Source: a virus (lineage: Duplodnaviria > Heunggongvirae > Uroviricota > Caudoviricetes). Taken from it: DNA of 42,469 nucleotides. The stretch is taken from IMG/VR virus record IMGVR_UViG_2541047705_000011; one strand, 5' to 3'. Position numbers and translations under genes: made by a program. The notes under the pieces were generated by a model, which had not been told where the DNA came from, made no database searches, and saw only the letters and a program-made list of their open reading frames with translations. The stretch's first letter is position 1, and each line of letters starts with the position of its first letter. Positions 532 to 42,469 of the stretch are shown here, piece after piece.

Positions 532-1071
532 ATGAAGAAAGTTTTTCTTTGCGCCATCTTAGCCTCCTTAAGCTATCCGGCTATCGCCTCATCATTGCAG
601 GATCAACTCTCGGCTGTCGCAGAAGCGGAACAGCAAGGTAAAAATGAAGAGCAAAGGCAGCATGACGAATGGGTCGCGGAGCGCAACAGGGAAATCCAGC
701 AAGAGAAGCAACGTCGCGCAAACGCCCAGGCCGCGGCTAATAAAAGAGCGGCAACGGCAGCAGCGAATAAGAAAGCTCGTCAGGATAAACTGGACGCCGA
801 AGCCACTGCGGACAAAAAACGCGATCAAAGTTATGAAGATGAGCTACGTAGCTTAGAGATTCAGAAACAAAAACTGGCGCTGGCGAAAGAAGAAGCCCGC
901 GTCAAGCGCGAAAACGAATTTATCGATCAGGAACTGAAGCACAAAGCTGCGCAAACCGATGTGGTGCAATCTGAAGCTGACGCAAACAGAAATATGACTG
1001 AAGGCGGTCGCGATCTGATGAAAAGCGTGGGTAAAGCAGAAGAGAATAAATCAGATAGCTGGTTTAACTAA
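532..1071 (+). CDS. Secreted charged coiled-coil protein, unknown function
   Basis: ORF track; RBS AGGAGG 6 nt upstream; N-terminal signal peptide; Lys/Glu/Ala/Gln-rich. Confidence 0.55.
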   Translation: MKKVFLCAILASLSYPAIASSLQDQLSAVAEAEQQGKNEEQRQHDEWVAERNREIQQEKQRRANAQAAANKRAATAAANKKARQDKLDAEATADKKRDQSYEDELRSLEIQKQKLALAKEEARVKRENEFIDQELKHKAAQTDVVQSEADANRNMTEGGRDLMKSVGKAEENKSDSWFN

Positions 1072-1109
1072 ACGATGTTAGTAACTTCAAACCTATAATT
1101 CTTTAGGAT

Positions 1110-1143
1110 AAAAAAACCCTCTGTAGTAACAGAGGGTTTTGTT
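1110..1143. terminator. Bidirectional rho-independent terminator between convergent genes
   Basis: A7 run, stem CCCTCTG/CAGAGGG with 6-nt loop, then T-run; lies between the 532-1071 gene and the lysis operon. Confidence 0.7.
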
Positions 1144-1289
1144 CATTCATAGTGCAGGGTCAAATCATTCCCACTCAATTATTTACGATAACCATAACCA
1201 ATTGAGTGATAACATTTTTCCAAATCTCAATTTTTCCCGTACCGTTTTATATACCGTCACCGGAAATCAGTACCATGAAAAATGCCATG

Positions 1290-1772
1290 CTATCTGGTCA
1301 AAGTGTCGTACTGTTTTTCGCAGACTCTTCCGGCTTCGGCTGCCCGGTCAGCATACTCTGCCAGTTGTCTGTTTCTCTCGAGAGATTTGCTGAGCACGTC
1401 GGCAAGCAAAACTCCGGTGTCTGCGGCTGACGACCCAGCGCCGACAATGGCGTTATACTGCCTGAGCTGCTCACGGATGGCAAAGAGTTGTTGCTGCAAC
1501 CGGCCAGCGCTAGCGGCAGCATCAAGAGCATCATTGCGCGCCTGGTCGATCCTCTGCTGAGCTTCACGTTCATTGGTCACTTTCTCCTGTTCGTAGTACT
1601 GACGAACTTTGTCTTCTTCGGCTTTGCGGTCTTCTTCCGCCTGAGCATACCCGGCATCGTACTGGCGACTGCCGTGTATATTCCAGGCAACCACTCCTGA
1701 TATGACCAGAACAGCAAGCACTGCCACGATAAGAAACTGTTTCCAGTATGCTTTTACGAATGCCCAGATCAT
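1290..1772 (-). CDS. Rz-like i-spanin
   Basis: N-terminal TM helix then charged coiled-coil; directly downstream of endolysin with ATGA overlap; contains embedded lipoprotein ORF. Confidence 0.7.
1298..1534 (-). CDS. Rz1-like o-spanin lipoprotein embedded in Rz (+1 frame)
   Basis: Start at [13 protein letters not shown] (lipobox) wholly inside the Rz ORF; Pro/Ser-rich mature part. Confidence 0.55.
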   Translation of the reverse strand: MMLLMLPLALAGCSNNSLPSVSSSGSITPLSALGRQPQTPEFCLPTCSANLSRETDNWQSMLTGQPKPEESAKNSTTL

Positions 1773-2398
1773 ACCGCCAGCACCTTACTGGCAGTGATGT
1801 ACCGCGCTCGCCGGTCGTCGATGCCGTTCCGGCCACCATTGATAATCAGAGTTACACGTGCAATATCGCCGGTATACTTCATGCATCCTTTGCTGGCGAA
1901 GAACCACGCCGCGCTACGAGCCGCATATTCGTCCTGCGCCAGCAGTTCAGGGCTCTCCAGCAGGTCAACCTTCAGACCGTTTCCGCAATCACGATAGTTA
2001 TTCAAACCGGTAATCTGGATAAGTCCGCGCCCTCGGTAATTCCAGCCATCACCAGGGGCATTGTTCCCCATGCGTTTGCTGTATACCAGATTTGCGATCG
2101 CGCGCTGGCGCTCAAGTGGCAATGGTGGTTCACCAGCACGGCGCCCCAGTGCATTAGCCTGCCCCTGAGTGAGACGCCCAGCCAGAACGAAGTTAGCCAG
2201 TCCGCTGACACTGTAGTTGAAATTCTCCTGCAACCTGGTGAAGCCCCCAGACTCATGCCCGACTTGAGCAATAAACATTGCCTGATCTTCTGCTTTGCTG
2301 ATACCAAACTCTTTCATCGCAGAAGTTATATGCGAGAACCAGCGTGCGGCCAGTGCCTCGCTGATACCAGCAGCTCGCTGGAATTGTTTAATCTCCAT
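1769..2398 (-). CDS. Endolysin, glycoside hydrolase family 19 (chitinase-like)
   Basis: Motifs GHESGGF and [12 protein letters not shown]; start trimmed to ATG at 2398 (MEIKQF); ORF-track N-terminal extension discarded. Confidence 0.8.
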
Positions 2399-2696
2399 GT
2401 TTAGACCTCGATACTTTAAAAATTTGAACGACGTTACCGCGCGTTTTAATAACCGCAGCCAGCATGACAGCGTTGATAATGACCTCAGATAAATCCACAG
2501 CCATTGGCGTACGTAACCAGATTGCATAGGCGACTCGAACAGGAATACTGGCCGCAGCAACAATCAGGAAATAAGCAAGCCATCCTCCCCACCTTCGATG
2601 TTGAGAGCCGTTACGCCGGAATGTGACAACGCGAATTGCTATGCCAGTGCAAATAACTGCATTAGTGATAAGCAAAAAAAACTCATGCGTTACCAT
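2388..2696 (-). CDS. Small lysis-associated membrane protein (second holin or antiholin candidate)
   Basis: About 102 aa with 2-3 hydrophobic segments between holin and endolysin; overlaps both neighbours. Confidence 0.5.
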
Positions 2697-3087
2697 CGTC
2701 TTTTCTCCCCGGAATTAACTCGCGTGGATTATCGGAACGGTGATAGAGCCATATACCAATACGCACAGCGACAATTGCTGACACGAATGCGCCTGCAGAG
2801 AAAACAATCCCTTTTTCAAAAGAGTCCTGCGTGATGGTAGGGATCAGGCTGGCTATGCCGATAAGAATTGATGCTGCTGGTTTGTAAAAGAGAAGGCCGC
2901 AAAGAAAGCTGAGCATCGACAGGAGCACCCGGCGACGGATGGGGTACTCTACTGCAGAGGTAACAAAAATTACCGCCCCAGCCAAAGCCCCTAAAGCAAC
3001 CTCCGGAGGGACACCTGCAATAACTGCAGCAAGAGAACCAAAACTAAGCAACTGATTTAATTGCTCACTTGTTACTTGAGCAGACAT
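2683..3087 (-). CDS. Holin
   Basis: 134 aa, multiple TM segments, charged C-terminus; RBS AGGAG 6 nt upstream; first gene of lysis cassette. Confidence 0.65.
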   Translation of the reverse strand: MSAQVTSEQLNQLLSFGSLAAVIAGVPPEVALGALAGAVIFVTSAVEYPIRRRVLLSMLSFLCGLLFYKPAASILIGIASLIPTITQDSFEKGIVFSAGAFVSAIVAVRIGIWLYHRSDNPRELIPGRKDDGNA

Positions 3088-3368: not shown

Positions 3369-3395
3369 CCCGCAATATTTTGCGGGCTTTTTTTT
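3369..3395 (+). terminator. Hairpin plus T8, canonical only in plus orientation, at tailspike 3' end
   Basis: CCCGCAA-TATT-TTGCGGG then C and T8; the T-run overlaps the tailspike stop codon; no plus-strand CDS upstream. Confidence 0.45.
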
Positions 3396-6300
3396 AACGT
3401 TCTTCCAGAGACTGAACCCGCTCTTTTATCTTATCCATTTCTCTGCGCTGCCATGCTGCCTCGATATAGAATAAGAGATCAGGTCTGACCCCCCATCTAG
3501 ATCCTGCTGGCGTTATTTCAACGCGCTCAATGATGTCTTCCATTACCATCACTGGATTATCATCCTCATCAACAATGATGCTCCCGTCATTATCAGTCAG
3601 CGGCATTTCCCTTTGGCCAGTAATGACGTCATCATATACTGCGGGATAATCGTCATAGCAAAGAAAGGCATAGCGGCATGTTGTGCTTTCTTCTTCCATG
3701 AGTCCGTGAGAAATAAGAACATCACGAAGTTGCTGCGCGATTACACCATGATGTATCCTCGCCCCTTCTTCCCCCTTTATAGCGACAGCGTTCAGCCATT
3801 TATAAGCGATATACCTGACGTCACCCCAGGCATCCAGCAATGCTTCGTCAGGAGAGACCGGCTCTGTCTTTAATGTTCCGTCACTGGTAACCACAGGATT
3901 GGAGCCAAGATAAACTGTCGAGAACCTGTTTCCCGGACCACCAAGAGCATTTACATTATCAAGATAAGGTTTAACATCTCCGTTCTCAAAAAGATGTTCG
4001 AGTGCGTTATATACCGCGCGACGTGGAGTACTGCTTCCGGAACCATGCAACGTTATCATTGCACCATCTGCTGAAGACGTTGTTTCACCTCCGCTAACGA
4101 TTAATCTCTGAGCGGTAACATCATCAGACGGTACTTTCTTCGCAATAATGGCGTAATTACCCTCAAGTTTGACTTCCGCGCGAACTTGTCCTGATGTACC
4201 TGCATGGACAGTCAGTGACTGGACGGCAACATCATCTGTGAAATCAACGGGTACAGGAACCGTCCTCACGCCTGACGTCGACATAAAAGTAGGAAGCGTT
4301 CTGTTAGGAGTGGCTCCGTAGACAAAATCCCTTGAAACAAATTCTTCCTGTTTAATTTTCACCCTGAAACAATACAAATCAGCCGGGTGACCATCGTGAA
4401 CATAAGGATATTTTCTGTTGTTATCCCCTATGCTCCATGGGTTTAGAAAGTCTTCCCCACCGAAAATGTAGTACAGCCAGTTGTCTTTGATACAAACTGA
4501 ACCAACACCAACCGCAGAGTTAACTATTCCGCCCTGATAAATCTGATCAGTAACATTAACCCACTCTACATTATCCAGACTCCACTCATTGACGTTAACT
4601 CTGGTCATAAATGTTCTTGGATAATTTCCTGCATAACGGTTATCAGGTTCTCCTCCTTCCCACTCACCAAATGCGCGCTCACTGCCAAAAATAATCAGCT
4701 CATCGCCAACTTTGGCAAAAGGAAGGTTTGAGTGATGAACATTATTTGGGAAGCGAAGAGAATTCCATGATGTACCTAAATCAGAGCTTCTGTGCAATGA
4801 ACTACCGGGTTGAGTACTTAATGTCCCCCTGGTCGTCAGATACAGAATGCCATCATAATATTTTACACATGGCTCAGATGCATTCGCCTCATATTCTGCA
4901 GGTATGCGTCTGCGAACAAAGCTACCAGGAGAACCGAAAGCATCAGAGAAATAGAGTATCCCAAGCTCGCGTGGACCAATATCACCATTATGGTAGCCAA
5001 CAGCAAAACTGTTATCGCTAATCGTCGCAAAACTGTGAATCTCAGTAACAGGAGTGCTTCCGTCAACAAAAGAAGGAATAGTTCCAAGACTGGTTTTTCT
5101 CCATGGTGACGAGTGAAATGATGTACCAAAACTCCAGTATCTACCCTCGTTATTCTGATCCACATCCTGGGTATTTTGCGTCGTAACTGTAAAAGTATTT
5201 TTATCAATAACAGTAGTCACCGTCATATTCCCGGTAACACCTGTAACACCAGAGTTTGAGAAGTTGACAAAATCACCAGCAAATAATCCGTGATCAGTAA
5301 TGCGAATATAAGCGACTTGCTGATTTGCTGCTTTCGTTATACCACCATAAACGCGAAGGCTGCGACTCATTGGGCGATCCCACAACTCTGCAACCTGCAG
5401 TTTATTTCCGCTCACGGTCCGCGTCTCAATTACAGCAAAAAGGCGATTTCTGACAACCCCCATACTCATGCAGTGATAGTTAACTGTGGGATAGTTTTCA
5501 TGTAAATCTGTAAGCCATTCCGGCGTTGTCCAGGTCTTCCCGTCATCTCCTGAGCGAACCCATGCAACATGGAGGTTATTTACACCATGGCGGTCTCCAG
5601 CCATAAAAGGCGCATAGATGACATTGTCATATACAAACGTTTTATCCTGCGTCCAGGCGTTGTACCACGGTGTATCTGTAATTTTAAATAACTCTCCCTG
5701 GATAAAATCTTCAGAAGCATAAAAAAGAGGCTGGCCCGGTATTCTCTCAAATAAAAAACGAGCATTTTTAAATCGACTGACATCCGGAAGAGTTGATACT
5801 TTAAAAGTAAGCCCTAATCCGTCAATTTTATAACCTGGAGATGAGGCTTCAAGGCACGCGCTTATTGCAGTGGAATCGTCATTTATACCATCACCAACAG
5901 CTCCAAAATCTTTGGGGCTAATAGCATCACGCATTTTATCCTGGAACGTTCGGTACACAGCCCCAGAACCATACTGAATAAACCAACCAAAACCACCAAC
6001 AACCCCGGCGATTGCAGCATCGACATAATTACGCATTGAGCGATTATTTACAGCGTCCTGCTCAAATGATGGATCTGCAAGGTTAGAAATTTTGTTTTGC
6101 TTTGCATCGTAATATTTTGCAAGCAAAGATGGTTTCATCAATGCACGTCTGAACCACCCAAAACATTGCTGGATCAGCATCGTCAGGTAGTCAAAGGCAT
6201 CTTCATGCACTTCGGGGAAAAATTTTCCCTGATTGCGAAGGTCTGTCTCCTGCACTACATCAAGCACACGATCTATCGTAATTCGCCATCCAGTAGCAAG

Positions 6301-6513
6301 CGGAGACGGAAGAACCACAGAACCGCCACTATAAGTGCCCGCCCCAGTTACCGTATAACCGGTATCCAGAACCAATTCTGTTACGTTCCCGTTCAGGTCA
6401 GACACCTGAACAACCAGGTCTGATTTTCTGAAAATTCGAAAAGTATACGGAAACGATGTCGTAACGCCGTTACCGGTGTATTCGTTGTGGTCAACTTCGG
6501 TTGAGACCGTCAT
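3394..6513 (-). CDS. Tailspike, endosialidase-like (endo-N-acetylneuraminidase) with C-terminal intramolecular chaperone
   Basis: 1039 aa; N-terminus has T7 tail-fibre-like pattern YxGxG..F..F..LVV; two Asp-boxes SGDDGKTW and SSDLGTSW; C-terminal SDGTLK and HHGVIAQQLRDV resemble the autocleaving chaperone of endosialidases. Confidence 0.7.
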   Translation of the reverse strand: MTVSTEVDHNEYTGNGVTTSFPYTFRIFRKSDLVVQVSDLNGNVTELVLDTGYTVTGAGTYSGGSVVLPSPLATGWRITIDRVLDVVQETDLRNQGKFFPEVHEDAFDYLTMLIQQCFGWFRRALMKPSLLAKYYDAKQNKISNLADPSFEQDAVNNRSMRNYVDAAIAGVVGGFGWFIQYGSGAVYRTFQDKMRDAISPKDFGAVGDGINDDSTAISACLEASSPGYKIDGLGLTFKVSTLPDVSRFKNARFLFERIPGQPLFYASEDFIQGELFKITDTPWYNAWTQDKTFVYDNVIYAPFMAGDRHGVNNLHVAWVRSGDDGKTWTTPEWLTDLHENYPTVNYHCMSMGVVRNRLFAVIETRTVSGNKLQVAELWDRPMSRSLRVYGGITKAANQQVAYIRITDHGLFAGDFVNFSNSGVTGVTGNMTVTTVIDKNTFTVTTQNTQDVDQNNEGRYWSFGTSFHSSPWRKTSLGTIPSFVDGSTPVTEIHSFATISDNSFAVGYHNGDIGPRELGILYFSDAFGSPGSFVRRRIPAEYEANASEPCVKYYDGILYLTTRGTLSTQPGSSLHRSSDLGTSWNSLRFPNNVHHSNLPFAKVGDELIIFGSERAFGEWEGGEPDNRYAGNYPRTFMTRVNVNEWSLDNVEWVNVTDQIYQGGIVNSAVGVGSVCIKDNWLYYIFGGEDFLNPWSIGDNNRKYPYVHDGHPADLYCFRVKIKQEEFVSRDFVYGATPNRTLPTFMSTSGVRTVPVPVDFTDDVAVQSLTVHAGTSGQVRAEVKLEGNYAIIAKKVPSDDVTAQRLIVSGGETTSSADGAMITLHGSGSSTPRRAVYNALEHLFENGDVKPYLDNVNALGGPGNRFSTVYLGSNPVVTSDGTLKTEPVSPDEALLDAWGDVRYIAYKWLNAVAIKGEEGARIHHGVIAQQLRDVLISHGLMEEESTTCRYAFLCYDDYPAVYDDVITGQREMPLTDNDGSIIVDEDDNPVMVMEDIIERVEITPAGSRWGVRPDLLFYIEAAWQRREMDKIKERVQSLEER

Positions 6514-6669: not shown

Positions 6670-6689
6670 TACTGTATAAATATACAGTT
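6670..6689. promoter_or_regulatory. LexA box (SOS operator)
   Basis: TACTGTATAAATATACAGTT, 18/20 to consensus TACTGTATATATATACAGTA (CTGT-N8-ACAG); 20 nt upstream of the 6709 start; possible -35 TTGATA overlaps. Confidence 0.75.
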
Positions 6690-6966: not shown

Positions 6967-6972
6967 ATTTAA

Positions 6973-6990
6973 AGGCCGCAAGAGCGGCCT
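6973..6990 (-). terminator. Hairpin terminator between convergent genes
   Basis: AGGCCGC-AAGA-GCGGCCT; T-rich on minus strand downstream; overlaps the 6989-7717 stop codon. Confidence 0.45.
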
Positions 6991-7717
6991 ATCGTTTCGC
7001 TTTGTGCTCGTCCCAGCACGTTTTGCACCATGCCATTAAGCCGTCCGCATTTTGATTATTAGGGTAAAAGCTGGTCCGTTTTCTGCGGACATTACAAATT
7101 GGGCACCACTTCATATGGCGTGTATTCTTTGGACCATCGAGACACCTTGCACACCACTTAGTCAATCCATCTGGATTTTTTGACGATTTCCGGAATTTGT
7201 CATATGGAAGGTTTATTCTGCATCGCAAACACTGCTTGCGGCCACTTGAAACTCTGTTAGCTGATTCTTCTTTTGGCGGCGATACAGAAGGTATTCTTGC
7301 TGGCTCTGATACTGCCTGAGGTGCTTTTTTAGATGACTGAGACGATATGTCATCACCAGGGAATCTTCCATGATATGCCGGACGCGTTGACACTCCAGGT
7401 GGAAGCTCAGCTGTAAACGGCTTTGGCTGAATCAGTTGCCTCTCTTTTGCTAACTCCTGCTGTTTATAATATGTCTGGATTACCGCACTATCATAAGCAG
7501 GAGGTACGGAAATATCAGGCGCGTTACCTCCAGTTTTTTGAAACTGAGTAGATGTGTGTTCTATCACCTGTGTACGACTAATCGTTACCTCCCCATCTTC
7601 GGTCTTTATCGTTTTGTTCTGATTAACGACCGTACGATCAGAGATCTTAGTCTTGTTCTGGTTGATAACGTAAATAATCACCGCAACCACACCAACAACT
7701 ATCCAGAAAACTTCCAT
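6989..7717 (-). CDS. Membrane-anchored protein with two C-terminal zinc-ribbon repeats, unknown function
   Basis: N-terminal TM helix, Pro/Ser-rich linker, then CLRC..x22..WCARC and CPIC..x21..WCKTC; RBS GAGGAAAAG. Confidence 0.6.
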   Translation of the reverse strand: MEVFWIVVGVVAVIIYVINQNKTKISDRTVVNQNKTIKTEDGEVTISRTQVIEHTSTQFQKTGGNAPDISVPPAYDSAVIQTYYKQQELAKERQLIQPKPFTAELPPGVSTRPAYHGRFPGDDISSQSSKKAPQAVSEPARIPSVSPPKEESANRVSSGRKQCLRCRINLPYDKFRKSSKNPDGLTKWCARCLDGPKNTRHMKWCPICNVRRKRTSFYPNNQNADGLMAWCKTCWDEHKAKR

Positions 7718-7736
7718 TGCTTTTCCTCACAATAAC

Positions 7737-7753
7737 ATTACCTTAAAGGTAAT
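7737..7753. promoter_or_regulatory. Operator-like palindrome ATTACC-TTAAA-GGTAAT (perfect)
   Basis: 20 nt upstream of the 7717 start codon; possible -35 TTGATC 17 nt from TACCTT on minus strand. Confidence 0.6.
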
Positions 7754-7785
7754 ATCTTGCTTTCAGGTGATCAAGCGTTAAACGC

Positions 7786-7807
7786 AATCAACCAAATACG
7801 GTTGATT
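7786..7807. promoter_or_regulatory. Second-type palindrome AATCAACC-N6-GGTTGATT
   Basis: Perfect 8-bp inverted repeats with 6-bp spacer, between two ATTACC/GGTAAT sites. Confidence 0.4.
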
Positions 7808-7829
7808 TTAATATTTCTTCGCGTTTATC

Positions 7830-7846
7830 ATTACCTTTGCGGTAAA
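7830..7846. promoter_or_regulatory. Operator-like palindrome ATTACC-TTTGC-GGTAAA (11/12 arms)
   Basis: Same motif family; upstream of structured leader and BRO gene. Confidence 0.5.
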
Positions 7847-7958: not shown

Positions 7959-8112
7959 ATGTGTAAAGCGCACCTATTCTATGGTGGGCTGTGTGGGGGC
8001 ACCGAAAGGTGCGCCGGGTTCCTTTGTAGCCGGTAAGACCAACTCTGCACAGTTCACCACCATCTGATTGGTCTCAGCGGTGGTGATTAACCTAACTACA
8101 AAGGTGATCGCT

Positions 8113-8805
8113 ATGAATACCAAACCTTCCATCTTTTCCTTTGAGTCATCCTGCCAGATCCGTATGTTCATGATTGACGGAGAACCTTGGTTTGTCACCA
8201 AAGATGTGTGCAATGCTTTGAATATTGATGTTACACAAGCGAGAAAACTTGATAAAAAAGGCTGGAACAAAAAGGGGCTGTATTCAATACAGACCCCTGG
8301 TGGAATACAAGAACTATCCATCGTTTCAGAATCAGGTCTCTACATCCTTATTCTGCGTTGCAAAGAGGCAATGACTGAGGGAACGAGAGCATTCAGATTT
8401 CTTGAATGGGTTACAGGTGAGGTTCTTCCTCAGATCCGCCGCACCGGAAGTTACATTAAAAACTCGCTCCCGCAGGAAGAACGCATAAAGATGGTTGCCG
8501 ACCAGGTAGCCAACGCCACGGCGTCAGCAGTAATGCAGGCGATGAAGATAGAGAACAAAACCTACAGTGCCCCACTGAAGCCCGGCTACCGTAGCCTGAT
8601 TCATTCGCCGTCTGGTGTTCTCGGCCTGACGGAGAACTCACTGCTGATGAATCTGCTGAACCAGTTACAGGACGACGGGCACGACGTATCGGGCGCGGCG
8701 GCGGAGCTGACCACCATGTTCTGCTACATCGTCGGTGTGAGCAAATGCCTGCGTGATATCCAGACCCACGCGGAGTACATCAACGACAAGGCAGGGTTCT
8801 TCTGA
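8113..8805 (+). CDS. BRO-N domain antirepressor
   Basis: BRO-N motif FSFESSCQIRMFMIDGEPWFVTKDVCNAL; RBS AAGGTGA; start trimmed to ATG 8113; C-terminal domain homologous to the 6709-6966 protein. Confidence 0.75.
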   Translation: MNTKPSIFSFESSCQIRMFMIDGEPWFVTKDVCNALNIDVTQARKLDKKGWNKKGLYSIQTPGGIQELSIVSESGLYILILRCKEAMTEGTRAFRFLEWVTGEVLPQIRRTGSYIKNSLPQEERIKMVADQVANATASAVMQAMKIENKTYSAPLKPGYRSLIHSPSGVLGLTENSLLMNLLNQLQDDGHDVSGAAAELTTMFCYIVGVSKCLRDIQTHAEYINDKAGFF

Positions 8806-10255: not shown

Positions 10256-10375
10256 AATTACCCCTATCATGGAAAAACAGCACCAATCCACAAATTAACT
10301 AGTTATTTTATTATTCTTCCGGTGATGCTGCCAACTTACTGATTTAGTGTATGATGGTGTTTTTGAGGTGCTCCA

Positions 10376-10651
10376 GTGGCTTCTGTTTCTATCAGCTGTC
10401 CCTCCTGTTCAGCTACTGACGGGGTGGTGCGTAACGGCAAAAGCACCGCCGGACATCAGCGCTATCTCTGCTCTCACTGCCGTAAAACATGGCAACTGCA
10501 GTTCACTTACACCGCTTCTCAACCCGGTACGCACCAGAAAATCATTGATATGGCCATGAATGGCGTTGGATGCCGGGCAACCGCCCGCATTATGGGCGTT
10601 GGCCTCAACACGATTTTACGTCACTTAAAAAACTCAGGCCGCAGTCGGTAA
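10376..10651 (+). CDS. insA: IS1 InsA
   Basis: Sequence recognised as IS1 InsA ([32 protein letters not shown]...). Confidence 0.95.
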
Positions 10652-11073
10652 CCTCGCGCATACAGCCGGGCAGTGACGTCATCGTCTGCGCGGAAATGGA
10701 CGAACAGTGGGGCTATGTCGGGGCTAAATCGCGCCAGCGCTGGCTGTTTTACGCGTATGACAGTCTCCGGAAGACGGTTGTTGCGCACGTATTCGGTGAA
10801 CGCACTATGGCGACGCTGGGGCGTCTTATGAGCCTGCTGTCACCCTTTGACGTGGTGATATGGATGACGGATGGCTGGCCGCTGTATGAATCCCGCCTGA
10901 AGGGAAAGCTGCACGTAATCAGCAAGCGATATACGCAGCGAATTGAGCGGCATAACCTGAATCTGAGGCAGCACCTGGCACGGCTGGGACGGAAGTCGCT
11001 GTCGTTCTCAAAATCGGTGGAGCTGCATGACAAAGTCATCGGGCATTATCTGAACATAAAACACTATCAATAA
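10570..11073 (+). CDS. insB: IS1 InsB reading frame (expressed as InsAB' fusion by -1 frameshift)
   Basis: Sequence recognised as IS1 InsB; slippery TTAAAAAACTC upstream in the InsA frame. Confidence 0.9.
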
Positions 11074-11117
11074 GTTGGAGTCATTACCTATTCTTCCGAA
11101 CAATACAATTCCGAATA

Positions 11118-27657: not shown

Positions 27658-27734
27658 GTGGCATTAGCTCAGTCGGACAGAGCAACCGCCTTCTAAGCGG
27701 TTGGTCGCAGGTTCGAATCCTGCATGCCACGCCA
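27658..27734 (+). tRNA. Phage-encoded tRNA-Arg (anticodon UCU)
   Basis: 77-nt cloverleaf: acceptor GTGGCAT/ATGCCAC, D-stem GCTC/GAGC, anticodon stem ACCGC/GCGGT with loop CTTCTAA, T-arm GCAGG-TTCGAAT-CCTGC, discriminator G, encoded CCA. Confidence 0.9.
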
Positions 27735-36553: not shown

Positions 36554-37138
36554 ATGAAAAGTATCCAGGACGTCCGCAGGCAAAATCTCAACGACTTGAT
36601 CGACCGTGAATTCAATGGTGTTCAGACGCGGATGGCAGAAAAACTTGGAACTCAGGCAAATCTGGTAAACCGCTGGGCTCTTGGCAAGAAGGTTATCGGC
36701 GACCAGGTTGCGCGAAAAATTGAAGCTGCCGCCAATAAACCCCGTAACTGGCTTGATATCGATCGCTCGCTTTCTCAGGAAGGTTTTCAGCCTGTCGGCC
36801 CAAGCGACATTGGTCAGCTGGCGGCTCACAACCTGGAACGCTGGATGAGCGAAAGCCGCGACCTTTCAACACAGGGAAAACTTCACCGCGCATCCGGCGT
36901 CGCCCAGGTGACAATCAGCCGCCTGTTAAACAATGAGGTCAGCGTTTCCATTTCCACCCTGGAGAATGTTGCATCCGCATTCGGGCGTCACGGATATGAA
37001 CTACTGATTCACCCGCACGACCCTGCGACTATCAACTATGACCGCTCGCGCTACGCATTGTTACCCGAAACCGAGAAAGCAAAGATCGAAAGTTACATTG
37101 AATTTGTCATCAACCAGAACGAAAAAAACAAACAATAA
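36554..37138 (+). CDS. CI-like repressor with two HTH domains and no recognisable S24 peptidase domain
   Basis: 194 aa; HTH segments TRMAEKLGTQANLVNRW and LHRASGVAQVTISRLLN; no Ser-Lys autocleavage module seen; weak SD. Confidence 0.65.
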   Translation: MKSIQDVRRQNLNDLIDREFNGVQTRMAEKLGTQANLVNRWALGKKVIGDQVARKIEAAANKPRNWLDIDRSLSQEGFQPVGPSDIGQLAAHNLERWMSESRDLSTQGKLHRASGVAQVTISRLLNNEVSVSISTLENVASAFGRHGYELLIHPHDPATINYDRSRYALLPETEKAKIESYIEFVINQNEKNKQ

Positions 37139-41218: not shown

Positions 41219-42469
41219 TTATTCCCCCGCCATCCACTTCTCAAACGTCGACGGGGAGAACGGAATCAGATCCGTATGCTCCCCGTCAATCCATGAATCA
41301 ATCATATCGGCCCACTGCTGCAACATGTAGGCGCGCTGTCTGGCGTATTCCGCTTTGTTATATACGGCGCGCACACCTTTCTGCTCATGTGCCAGAGCCT
41401 TTTCAATCCAGTCTGAAGGATAACCAGCCTCATGCAACAACGTACTGGCTGTACGGCGCATATCATGTACAGTGAAGTCCTGAATATGCTCACCATCTTC
41501 ATTTATTATTTTCACCGTTCTGTCGATCAGAGAGTTCAGCGCGGCATTAGATAATGGCTTCCGGAAATTGTAACGACCAGGAACCAGATATTCACTTCCA
41601 CCAGCGCACATCTGCAACCCGACCAATATATCCTGTGCCTGTTTAGGCAGGTAAATAACGTGCGCCCGGCTTCCCTTCATGCGGTCTGGAGGAATTGTCC
41701 ATGTCCATTTTTTAAAATCTATTTCATCCCACGTTGCATTGGTGAATTCGCCCTTACGAACCATAGTGATAAGCACCAGTTTTAAAGCCATTTTCATAGT
41801 GCCCATAGCACCAATGGCATCCAGCGTGCGGAAGAATAGGCCAATTTCTTCTGGTGTCAGTGTTCGCTCTCGTGGTTTAAATATGGCGATAGACGAAGGT
41901 TTAATGTCAGCCGCAGGATTAAACAAACCATGACCACGGTCATTGGCGTGACGGTATACGCTACTGATGATCTCCCTGGCCTGCACTGCTGTTGCCCGGC
42001 CACCGCGTTCGACAATCCGGTCACACAAATCACGAACCATCGATGTGGTAATTTCAGCCATCATTTTATTGCCAAGAACCGGAAGTATGTCACGGTCGAT
42101 CACCGCCTGTTTCATTGCGCGGGTACTGTCAGCCAGGATGACGTGTTTCATATAACTGTCGGTATGTACCGCAAACGTCTCGGCACCACGAATCTTTTTG
42201 ATACCGTCACGTTTAGCCGCAGCCGGTGACTGGCCTGCTTTAAGCAGCTTCTTTGCAGCAATCAGTTCTTCTCGCGCTTCTGCCAGGCTGATACCGTCAC
42301 GCCCATACTGCCCGATTACCAGTGTTTCGCGGCGACCGTTGATACGGTAGTCATAGCGAAACGAGACCGTGCCTGACGTAAGCACAGCTACATACAGCCC
42401 GTCACGATCGGAGACCTTGTACAGTTTGTCCTGCGGCTTGAGGTTTTTTAATTTTGTATCGGTAAGCAC
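41219..42469 (-). CDS. Tyrosine integrase (P4-like), N-terminus at window edge
   Basis: N-terminal LTDTKLKNLKPQDKLYKVSDRDGLYV; catalytic HDMRRTAST and C-terminal Tyr region; first codon GTG at 42467-42469, true start may lie outside the window. Confidence 0.85.
   Translation of the reverse strand: MLTDTKLKNLKPQDKLYKVSDRDGLYVAVLTSGTVSFRYDYRINGRRETLVIGQYGRDGISLAEAREELIAAKKLLKAGQSPAAAKRDGIKKIRGAETFAVHTDSYMKHVILADSTRAMKQAVIDRDILPVLGNKMMAEITTSMVRDLCDRIVERGGRATAVQAREIISSVYRHANDRGHGLFNPAADIKPSSIAIFKPRERTLTPEEIGLFFRTLDAIGAMGTMKMALKLVLITMVRKGEFTNATWDEIDFKKWTWTIPPDRMKGSRAHVIYLPKQAQDILVGLQMCAGGSEYLVPGRYNFRKPLSNAALNSLIDRTVKIINEDGEHIQDFTVHDMRRTASTLLHEAGYPSDWIEKALAHEQKGVRAVYNKAEYARQRAYMLQQWADMIDSWIDGEHTDLIPFSPSTFEKWMAGE

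Follow-up and report, generated by a model that had tools for sequence, protein, structure and literature searches.

An endosialidase tailspike with an ε15-type adaptor in a guaA-integrated temperate prophage of K1-type Escherichia coli

Tailspikes that degrade the polysialic acid capsule are found in several podoviruses of K1-type E. coli. The gene described here, in a window (the whole stretch of viral DNA analysed) of 42,469 nucleotides, almost certainly codes for a tailspike that binds the receptor and degrades the capsule, and that belongs to a temperate podovirus of the ε15-like group (Uetakevirus) integrated into K1-type E. coli at the guaA 3' end. This assignment is built on direct observation of the domain layout, the conserved residues, the identity with characterised enzymes, the prophage setting and the distribution. 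The endosialidase tailspike reading of the first-pass annotation is correct but ordinary, since the protein, the ε15-like phage and the earlier K1 prophage CUS-3 have already been published.

One unbroken ORF of 1039 codons fills positions 3394-6513 exactly, with the ATG at 6513 and the TAA at 3396-3394, which bears out the 1039-aa protein described earlier. The plus strand of the same interval is full of stops, so coding on that strand was ruled out and the gene lies on the minus strand, a point on which the first-pass annotation was silent. A Shine-Dalgarno GGAG is located 8 nt upstream of the ATG, and the protein matches phrog_1171 (tail spike) over its full length with E=0. RefSeq already labels the protein as an endosialidase. 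The features of the gene and its surroundings are collected in Table 1.

Table 1. Coordinates of the tailspike gene, its domains and the prophage features in the window
Feature	Position	Strand	Evidence
att core ATTGAGTGGGAATGATT, yfgI-side prophage end	1163..1179	-	exact match, 0 expected by chance
Lysis cassette directly downstream of tailspike: two holins, GH19 endolysin, DUF2514 spanin-like protein	1290..3087	-	Pfam, RefSeq
GC-rich hairpin, 8 nt past tailspike stop codon; T-run on plus strand	3369..3386		terminator scan and sequence
Complete tailspike gene (endosialidase precursor), 1039 aa + stop	3394..6513	-	ORF list and translation
C-terminal intramolecular chaperone/self-cleaving domain (Peptidase_S74, PF13884), aa 877-1039	3397..3885	-	Pfam E=1.8e-10
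2,378-nt cassette common to CUS-3 siaK1, gene nt 700-3077, about aa 234-1025	3437..5814	-	sliding identity, breakpoint alignments
Stalk, triple-β-helix tailspike domain (PF12219, End_tail_spike), aa 722-876	3886..4350	-	Pfam E=8.4e-78
Catalytic six-bladed β-propeller (PF12217, End_beta_propel), aa 272-721	4351..5700	-	Pfam E=1.4e-233; 1v0e/3gvl E=0
Asp-box SSDLGTSW, aa 576-583	4765-4788	-	fits S-x-D-x-G-x-x-W
β-barrel (PF12195, End_beta_barrel) inserted in propeller, aa 383-465	5119..5367	-	Pfam E=3.2e-46
Asp-box SGDDGKTW, aa 321-328	5530-5553	-	fits S-x-D-x-G-x-x-W
Endosialidase N-terminal extension (PF12218, End_N_terminal), aa 205-271	5701..5901	-	Pfam E=5.9e-32
Diverged junction, aa 193-233	5815..5937	-	alignment, per-domain identities
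N-terminal virion-attachment adaptor, ε15/phiV10 (Uetakevirus) type, aa 1-192	5938..6513	-	tblastn, PDB, AF2, Foldseek
Tyrosine integrase, 416 aa, guaA-side prophage end	41219..42469	-	Pfam Arm-DNA-bind_3, Phage_int_M, Phage_integrase; RefSeq

The comparison with known endosialidases that had been proposed as a check matched every endosialidase domain, the propeller included. All five Pfam domains are full-length matches, with PF12217 covered end to end (1-367/367) and PF12195 and PF12219 likewise complete, and the set lies far beyond chance, with E-values from 1.4e-233 to 2e-10. The two Asp-boxes previously noticed in the central region, SGDDGKTW at aa 321 and SSDLGTSW at aa 576, line up with the boxes of K1F. 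Residues 205-876 align end to end and with few gaps to the endoNF crystal structures 1v0e and 3gvl (E=0; 65-70% identity over 672 residues), and residues 757-1038 match the endoNF chaperone-domain structure 3gw6 with E=1.9e-93. Together with the Peptidase_S74 match, the latter upholds the suggestion of an autocleaving C-terminal chaperone, which had been based on SDGTLK (starting at aa 877) and HHGVIAQQLRDV (at aa 921).

The residues of the active site point in the same direction. The catalytic H350, R549, E581, R596 and R647 of K1F correspond to H309, R515, E547, R562 and R613, all identical; with Q330, D331, H527, S528, K585 and N699 they make up the catalytic or mutation-intolerant K1F residues listed previously (PMC12632334), 11/11 of which are conserved in this protein. 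K1F S911 and K916 correspond to S877 and K882, so that the Ser/Lys pair is retained. This pair presumably constitutes the catalytic dyad of chaperone self-cleavage, as in endoNF. The boundary between the mature K1F protein (gp17*) and its CTD (gp17-CTD) is annotated at residues 910/911, and the endoNF crystal chains stop at the position aligned with T876, which is where the mature protein ends. In the stalk, Q853 of endoNF, which we take to be a polysialic acid binding position, is replaced by Met; the active CUS-3 enzyme has the same residue in the alignment, and the substitution is therefore no real objection.

The N-terminus was described earlier as T7-tail-fibre-like, and this holds for the fold and not for the sequence. 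By tblastn, the adaptor is 67-72% identical to the tailspike N-termini of Salmonella E15-type phages, SPN1S, TL-2011b and O157 typing phage 10, and it matches the Dpo31/Dpo36 fibre in the PDB with E=1e-35. With the T7-tail Pfam model PF03906 the score was only 15.9 bits where 25.2 are required (E=0.011, over a 27-residue stretch), and a 20-sequence profile compared by hhalign with the N-terminus of K1F gp17 gave no significant match (probability 0.12, E=0.47); these two results speak against a T7 gp17-type N-terminus at the sequence level. The AF2 model of the N-terminus contains a β-domain with a pLDDT of about 90 and is confident only for aa 6-87. Foldseek searches with this model retrieved 8ck1_B (E=4e-11), the T7 gp17 N-terminus 7boz_a (E=2.8e-4, probability 1.00) and 9jz0_b (rmsd 3.3 Å over 86 columns, 16% identity). 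As judged from the predicted model, the adaptor resembles T7 gp17 remotely and at the fold level only. The following junction (aa 193-233) is homologous to the endosialidase N-terminal extension, with 41% identity to CUS-3 and 34% to K1F.

The propeller is identical at 450/450 residues to that of CUS-3 SiaK1 (CP000711; Stummeyer et al. 2006, PMID 16689790), whose endo-alpha-sialidase activity carries the evidence code IDA in the GenBank annotation (PMID 16689790). From this identity, the protein would be expected to cleave α2,8-polysialic acid endolytically. The specificity for polysialic acid of the K1 type predicted by the first-pass annotation agrees with the CUS-3 propeller and with the fact that the carrier strains, like the host of the near-identical phage vB_EcoP_ZX5, are of serotype K1. 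The carrier genomes are K1 ExPEC and APEC, such as APEC O1, O7:K1 CE10, and O1:K1:H7 and O2:K1:H5 strains.

By analogy with the endoNF and CUS-3 homologues, from which catalysis, self-cleavage and host range of the window's copy are extrapolated, the following mechanism is proposed. The C-terminal chaperone domain (aa 877-1039) would aid trimerisation of the precursor and then excise itself between T876 and S877 via the dyad of Ser877 and Lys882. The mature trimer, with 876 residues per chain, would join the ε15-type tail through the N-terminal adaptor (aa 1-192) and bind the α2,8-polysialic acid (K1) capsule through the β-barrel and stalk, while the six-bladed β-propeller with H309, R515, E547, R562 and R613 would cut the polymer endolytically. 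Capsule cleavage would allow the virion to tunnel through the K1 capsule to the outer membrane.

The surrounding genes belong to an ε15-like Uetakevirus temperate prophage integrated at guaA, as judged by gene content and collinearity. The att core ATTGAGTGGGAATGATT at one end has been published for ZX5, phiV10 and ε15 (PMC9782041), and for the corresponding prophage of APEC O1 the RefSeq annotation places guaA next to the integrase, with yfgI and guaA as the flanks, and lists the capsid staple gp10, a core protein of the T7 gp14 family and further backbone genes. With the integrase domains, the att core and an HTH repressor candidate at 36554-37138, the earlier view of a temperate, integrase-bearing prophage is well founded. 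ZX5 and the window are collinear and 97-99.7% identical. An intergenic IS1 (about 10322-11088) and, at 6967-7830, an accessory segment different from that of ZX5 set the window apart but leave the tailspike untouched. CUS-3 has a phase-variable neuO O-acetyltransferase beside its tailspike, whereas the window contains no neuO heptanucleotide repeat (AAGACTC), and Pfam and PHROG searches of the tailspike-neighbouring ORFs yielded a BRO-N antirepressor, PHROGs of unknown function and IS1 and no recognisable acyltransferase.

The similarity to CUS-3 extends beyond the propeller to a shared cassette. Residues 234-1025 are identical to SiaK1 at 788/792 positions (99.5%), the last 14 residues differ, and the underlying DNA is about 99.7% identical to siaK1 (7-8 mismatches) with a sharp 3' breakpoint. 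The ε15-type endosialidase chimera is present in 73/5,426 complete E. coli genomes, at least 12 of which are double lysogens with a co-resident CUS-3; genes of the CUS-3 type number 154. Variation in the cassette is very slight among 16 copies, and its polymorphisms are reticulate, failing to sort by prophage type (ε15-like versus P22-like); at columns 621 and 690 all four allele combinations occur, and the two copies of AREA_486 are 2/2,378 nt apart and have two private alleles in common. This reticulate pattern suggests recurrent exchange between the two prophage types. Within genomes, pairs of ε15-type and CUS-3-type cassettes show 9, 10, 3, 2, 2 and 11 differences, compared with a between-genome mean of 8.3. 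These mixed distances do not bear out a general in-situ homogenisation of co-resident cassettes, and the claim is limited to reticulate exchange for this reason. We lean slightly towards regarding the cassette as a shared pool, with repeated recombination between two unrelated families of temperate podoviruses, the ε15-like guaA prophage and the P22-like CUS-3, inside K1 E. coli carrying both. The two phage types would use one receptor and differ in immunity. The edges, diverged yet homologous (aa 193-233 and the last 14 residues), suggest from their alignment a conversion between two pre-existing endosialidase genes instead of a one-off fusion. No report of cassette exchange between ε15-like and CUS-3 prophages was found in the literature, the coverage of which was incomplete.

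The same variation bears on whether the gene is still that of a working phage. An intact sequence could persist in a defective prophage after losing its role in infection, possibly being kept for a benefit to the host such as capsule remodelling. The IS1 and the replaced accessory segment, both absent from the ZX5 configuration, would fit such a relic, and the sister CUS-3-type tailspike is frameshifted in CE10, indicating that genes of this kind do decay. Against this, the full-length ORF differs by 2 aa from the version of an infectious phage, the structural, lysis, integrase and repressor genes are all present at 97-99.7% identity to ZX5, the IS1 sits between genes, and the scant variation across the 16 cassette copies is consistent with constraint or recent spread, all of which makes a relic improbable.

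It is more improbable still that the enzyme prefers a substrate other than plain α2,8-polysialic acid, such as O-acetylated K1 or the alternating α2,8/α2,9 polymer of the K92 type. Such a preference might be read from the catalytic region, only 65-70% identical to endoNF, from 7 extra residues (FVDGSTP) in the propeller compared with K1F, and from the CUS-3 O-acetyltransferase that host strains often also harbour, but the propeller is 100% identical to that of SiaK1, for which an assayed endo-α-sialidase activity is annotated, none of the catalytic and functionally critical residues of K1F is altered, and a K1 host supports the growth of ZX5.

The receptor had been introduced as one mostly known from lytic phages, with an implied surprise at a temperate carrier. 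This does not stand: the temperate CUS-3 is long established and ZX5 was described in 2022, so a temperate K1 phage is no novelty. Considering the RefSeq label, the 99.8% identical ZX5 protein and the record of temperate K1 phages since CUS-3, the value of the present annotation in itself is small; its practical use is as a confirmed example of the K1 endosialidase module on an ε15-like chassis. The chimera is common in K1 lineages of neonatal-meningitis, urinary and avian pathogens, and it is relevant to therapeutic K1 phages and endosialidase, since receptor-binding modules could pass to or from resident prophages.

The closest known relative is ORF7 of vB_EcoP_ZX5 (MW722083), which has the same length and shares 1037/1039 residues, the two substitutions being S368R and V1033I. 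As a free temperate Uetakevirus, ZX5 forms plaques on E. coli O87:H52:K1 and lysogenises it, with integration at guaA and induction by mitomycin (PMC9782041); it shares the Uetakevirus genome, guaA site, att core and K1 host type with the window's prophage. Its tail protein was read as a T7-like tail fibre N-terminus, an endosialidase and an intramolecular chaperone (Li et al. 2022, PMC9782041), in a study that contained no enzyme assay and left the identity with the CUS-3 cassette unremarked. CUS-3 is likewise a temperate K1 prophage of ExPEC but is itself P22-like (Lederbergvirus), and its adaptor is a P22-type head-binding domain, in contrast to the ε15-type adaptor found here (17.5% identity over the alignable part, otherwise unalignable). 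In endoNF (gp17 of the lytic K1F; 1v0e, 3gvl, 3gw6) the domains between N-terminal extension and chaperone are arranged as they are here, the catalytic residues and the cleavage dyad are unchanged, and the part in common is 65% identical, whereas K1F, a lytic T7-like phage, has a genuine T7 gp17-type N-terminus. The tailspikes of the Uetakevirus members ε15, phiV10, SPN1S and TL-2011b are 67-72% identical over roughly the N-terminal 165 residues, in the same genome backbone and gene position, but bear right-handed β-helix O-antigen depolymerase or other receptor-binding modules in place of an endosialidase. The K1 endosialidase module is found on at least four podovirus chassis, namely the T7-like K1F, the SP6-like K1E/K1-5, the P22-like CUS-3 and the ε15-like ZX5.

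The tailspike gene of the window is preceded by a GGAG ribosome-binding site 8 nt upstream of its ATG, and all four motifs quoted in the first-pass annotation were located in its translated frame: SGDDGKTW at aa 321, SSDLGTSW at aa 576, SDGTLK at aa 877, and HHGVIAQQLRDV at aa 921. The plus-strand reading of 3394-6513 was rejected, as it contains stops throughout. Pfam matched all phage endosialidase domains in the protein, each across the full model length (see table). Residues 205-876 aligned end to end with endoNF, the endosialidase gp17 of lytic phage K1F (1v0e, 3gvl; E=0), and residues 757-1038 aligned with the structure of the endoNF C-terminal chaperone domain (3gw6, E=2e-93). A deep-mutational scan of K1F gp17 reported the catalytic residues H350, R549, E581, R596, and R647 and the further critical positions Q330, D331, H527, S528, K585, and N699 (PMC12632334). 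In the alignment, 11/11 of these residues are identical in the window protein, where the catalytic five are numbered H309, R515, E547, R562, and R613. The K1F record annotates the end of the mature protein at residue 910 and the start of the released chaperone domain at S911; this boundary aligns to T876/S877 of the window protein, and K916, the partner lysine of the cleavage Ser, aligns to K882. Because the domains, the structure alignment, the catalytic residues, and the cleavage site all match, the sialidase propeller expected of an endosialidase is clearly present. In the decisive comparison, 788 of 792 residues (aa 234-1025), including 450/450 in the propeller, are identical to SiaK1, the tailspike of the P22-like temperate prophage CUS-3, whose GenBank record assigns endo-alpha-sialidase activity to siaK1 by direct assay (IDA, PMID 16689790). 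Considering this near-identity to a protein annotated as assayed, it can very safely be inferred that the window protein would cleave α2,8-polysialic acid.

Features of the tailspike gene, its protein, and the surrounding prophage
Feature	Position	Strand or location	Details
Tailspike ORF	3394-6513 exactly	minus, ATG at 6513	1039 codons + stop, single uninterrupted reading frame
Endosialidase cassette	3437-5814		gene nt 700-3077
End_N_terminal	aa 205-271		Pfam E=6e-32
End_beta_propel	aa 272-721		Pfam E=1.4e-233
End_beta_barrel, insertion	aa 383-465		Pfam E=3e-46
End_tail_spike	aa 722-876		Pfam E=8e-78
Peptidase_S74 chaperone domain	starts aa 877		Pfam E=2e-10
GC-rich hairpin	3369-3386	8 nt past tailspike stop	T-run on plus strand; A-run ahead on gene strand
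Lysis cassette		directly downstream of tailspike	
att core	1163-1179		ATTGAGTGGGAATGATT
LexA-box-like palindrome	6672-6687		CTGTATAAATATACAG, perfect
Variable accessory slot	6967-7830	beside tailspike	ORF 6989-7717, minus, 242 aa, phrog_6762, unknown function
BRO-N antirepressor	8068-8805	reached by plus-strand operon	
IS1 element	~10322-11088		InsA 10376-10651, Pfam E=5e-31; InsB 10570-11073, E=6e-78
tRNA-Arg	27658-27734	between portal and terminase regions	anticodon TCT; likewise annotated in APEC O1
HTH repressor candidate	36554-37138		
Tyrosine integrase	41219-42469		

Residues 1-192 show no relationship to the P22-type head-binding domain of CUS-3. This adaptor shares 67-72% identity with Uetakevirus tailspike N-termini (Salmonella ε15-type phage, SPN1S, TL-2011b, and O157 typing phage 10); those phages have it joined to different receptor-binding modules. 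Its initial description as T7-tail-fibre-like holds by fold but not by sequence: PF03906 (Pfam) scored 15.9 bits, below the 25.2 cut-off, and hhalign of a 20-sequence adaptor profile against the truly T7-like K1F N-terminus gave a probability of only 0.12. On the other hand, the AlphaFold model, confident for the β-domain only (aa 6-87), matched the tail-bound podovirus fibre N-terminus of Carin-1 (8ck1_B, E=4e-11, 48% identity) and the tail-bound N-terminus of T7 gp17 (7boz_a, E=3e-4, probability 1.00; 9jz0_b, rmsd 3.3 Å over 86 columns). Since the sequence tests fail and the fold search matches, the adaptor is an ε15-type member by sequence and, in its predicted fold, a remote structural relative of the T7 adaptor. 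A 277-aa protein of Kluyvera cryocrescens (P0010) shares 80% identity with the ε15-type adaptor and runs on into an endosialidase N-terminal extension domain (PF12218), hinting at a chimera of similar kind outside E. coli.

The endosialidase cassette shares ~99.7% DNA identity with CUS-3 siaK1 (7-8 mismatches in 2,378 nt). At the 3' end the shared sequence stops abruptly, at codon 1025-1026; its 5' flank (aa 193-233) retains endosialidase N-terminal extension homology but is only 41% identical to CUS-3. Such edges, diverged yet homologous, are a better fit to conversion between two pre-existing endosialidase genes than to one fusion. Of 5,426 complete E. coli genomes queried for the specific junctions, 73 held the ε15-type chimera and 154 the CUS-3-type junction; among the 60 records listed per type, at least 12 genomes, including IHE3034, CE10, and APEC O18, carried both. 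Sixteen cassette copies were compared, nine of the ε15 type and seven of the CUS-3 type, with six pairs from the same genome among them; they revealed only 25 variable columns and no sorting by phage type, with all four allele combinations present at columns 621 and 690. The AREA_486 pair differs at 2 sites and has two private alleles in common. Three alleles common to the CE10 pair recur, among the 16 copies compared, in no other genome than AF14, where both copies have them. Because within-genome pairs were not uniformly closer (9, 10, 3, 2, 2, and 11 differences versus a between-genome mean of 8.3), we do not claim systematic within-genome homogenisation; our claim, read from these alignments, is that the cassette has probably been exchanged recurrently between the two prophage families. 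A literature search of incomplete coverage found no description of such exchange. CE10 is a double lysogen in which a 1-nt insertion at cassette column 1366 frameshifts the CUS-3-type endosialidase gene (L009:3100-6046) and the ε15-type copy is intact.

The prophage is sited between yfgI and guaA and is collinear over its entire length with the free phage vB_EcoP_ZX5 (ZX5; MW722083, Uetakevirus) at 97-99.7% identity. The integrase, repressor candidate, antirepressor, and att core were all found, in agreement with its earlier designation as an integrase-bearing temperate prophage. Its tailspike DNA is 100% identical to the E. coli APEC O1 gene, for which RefSeq already gives endosialidase as the protein name. 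The palindrome CTGTATAAATATACAG has a single copy in the window versus 0.05 expected by chance, in the intergenic stretch from which the tailspike gene and the plus-strand operon reaching the BRO-N antirepressor diverge; its placement ahead of this operon suggests that antirepressor induction may be under SOS control. Mitomycin induction and an active antirepressor were reported for ZX5, with LexA unmentioned (PMC9782041). The hairpin past the tailspike stop resembles a terminator acting in the opposite direction or in both, and the lysis genes, which share the orientation of the tailspike, come after it.

In CUS-3, the phase-variable capsule O-acetyltransferase gene neuO adjoins the tailspike, whereas the window prophage contains no AAGACTC repeat and, among the ORFs near the tailspike, no recognisable acyltransferase. 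Its tailspike neighbours are accessory genes of unknown function, an antirepressor, and, in this copy, IS1, which lies between the gene of an 824-aa virion protein and a 138-aa ORF, is missing from ZX5 and APEC O1, and has ~9-10 bp of ZX5 sequence duplicated at its edges. The 242-aa slot protein shows a Cys-rich C-terminus and weak endonuclease VII/Lar-like matches; its ORF is missing from ZX5 and APEC O1, but phage TL-2011b has a 95% identical version, and a YafO-family toxin gene occupies the equivalent slot in IHE3034 and APEC O18.

ZX5 was isolated on E. coli YO1 (serotype O87:H52:K1) by Li et al. 2022 (PMC9782041), who showed it to be short-tailed and temperate, integrating into the guaA 3' end via the att core ATTGAGTGGGAATGATT, with both spontaneous and mitomycin induction. 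For its tail protein ORF7, which differs from the window protein at 2 residues, the authors described three parts: an N-terminus like that of T7 tail fibres, an endosialidase in the centre, and an endosialidase intramolecular chaperone at the C-terminus (PMC9782041). CUS-3, a temperate P22-like K1 phage with an endosialidase tailspike, has been textbook modular tailspike evolution since 2006. As a matter of proportion, the first-pass remark that lytic phages supply most known cases of K1 specificity is fair, but it confers no novelty, CUS-3 and ZX5 both being temperate. The tailspike finding is real and correctly interpreted, yet already known from these phages, and the remaining interest lies in the probable population-level cassette exchange between co-resident prophages.
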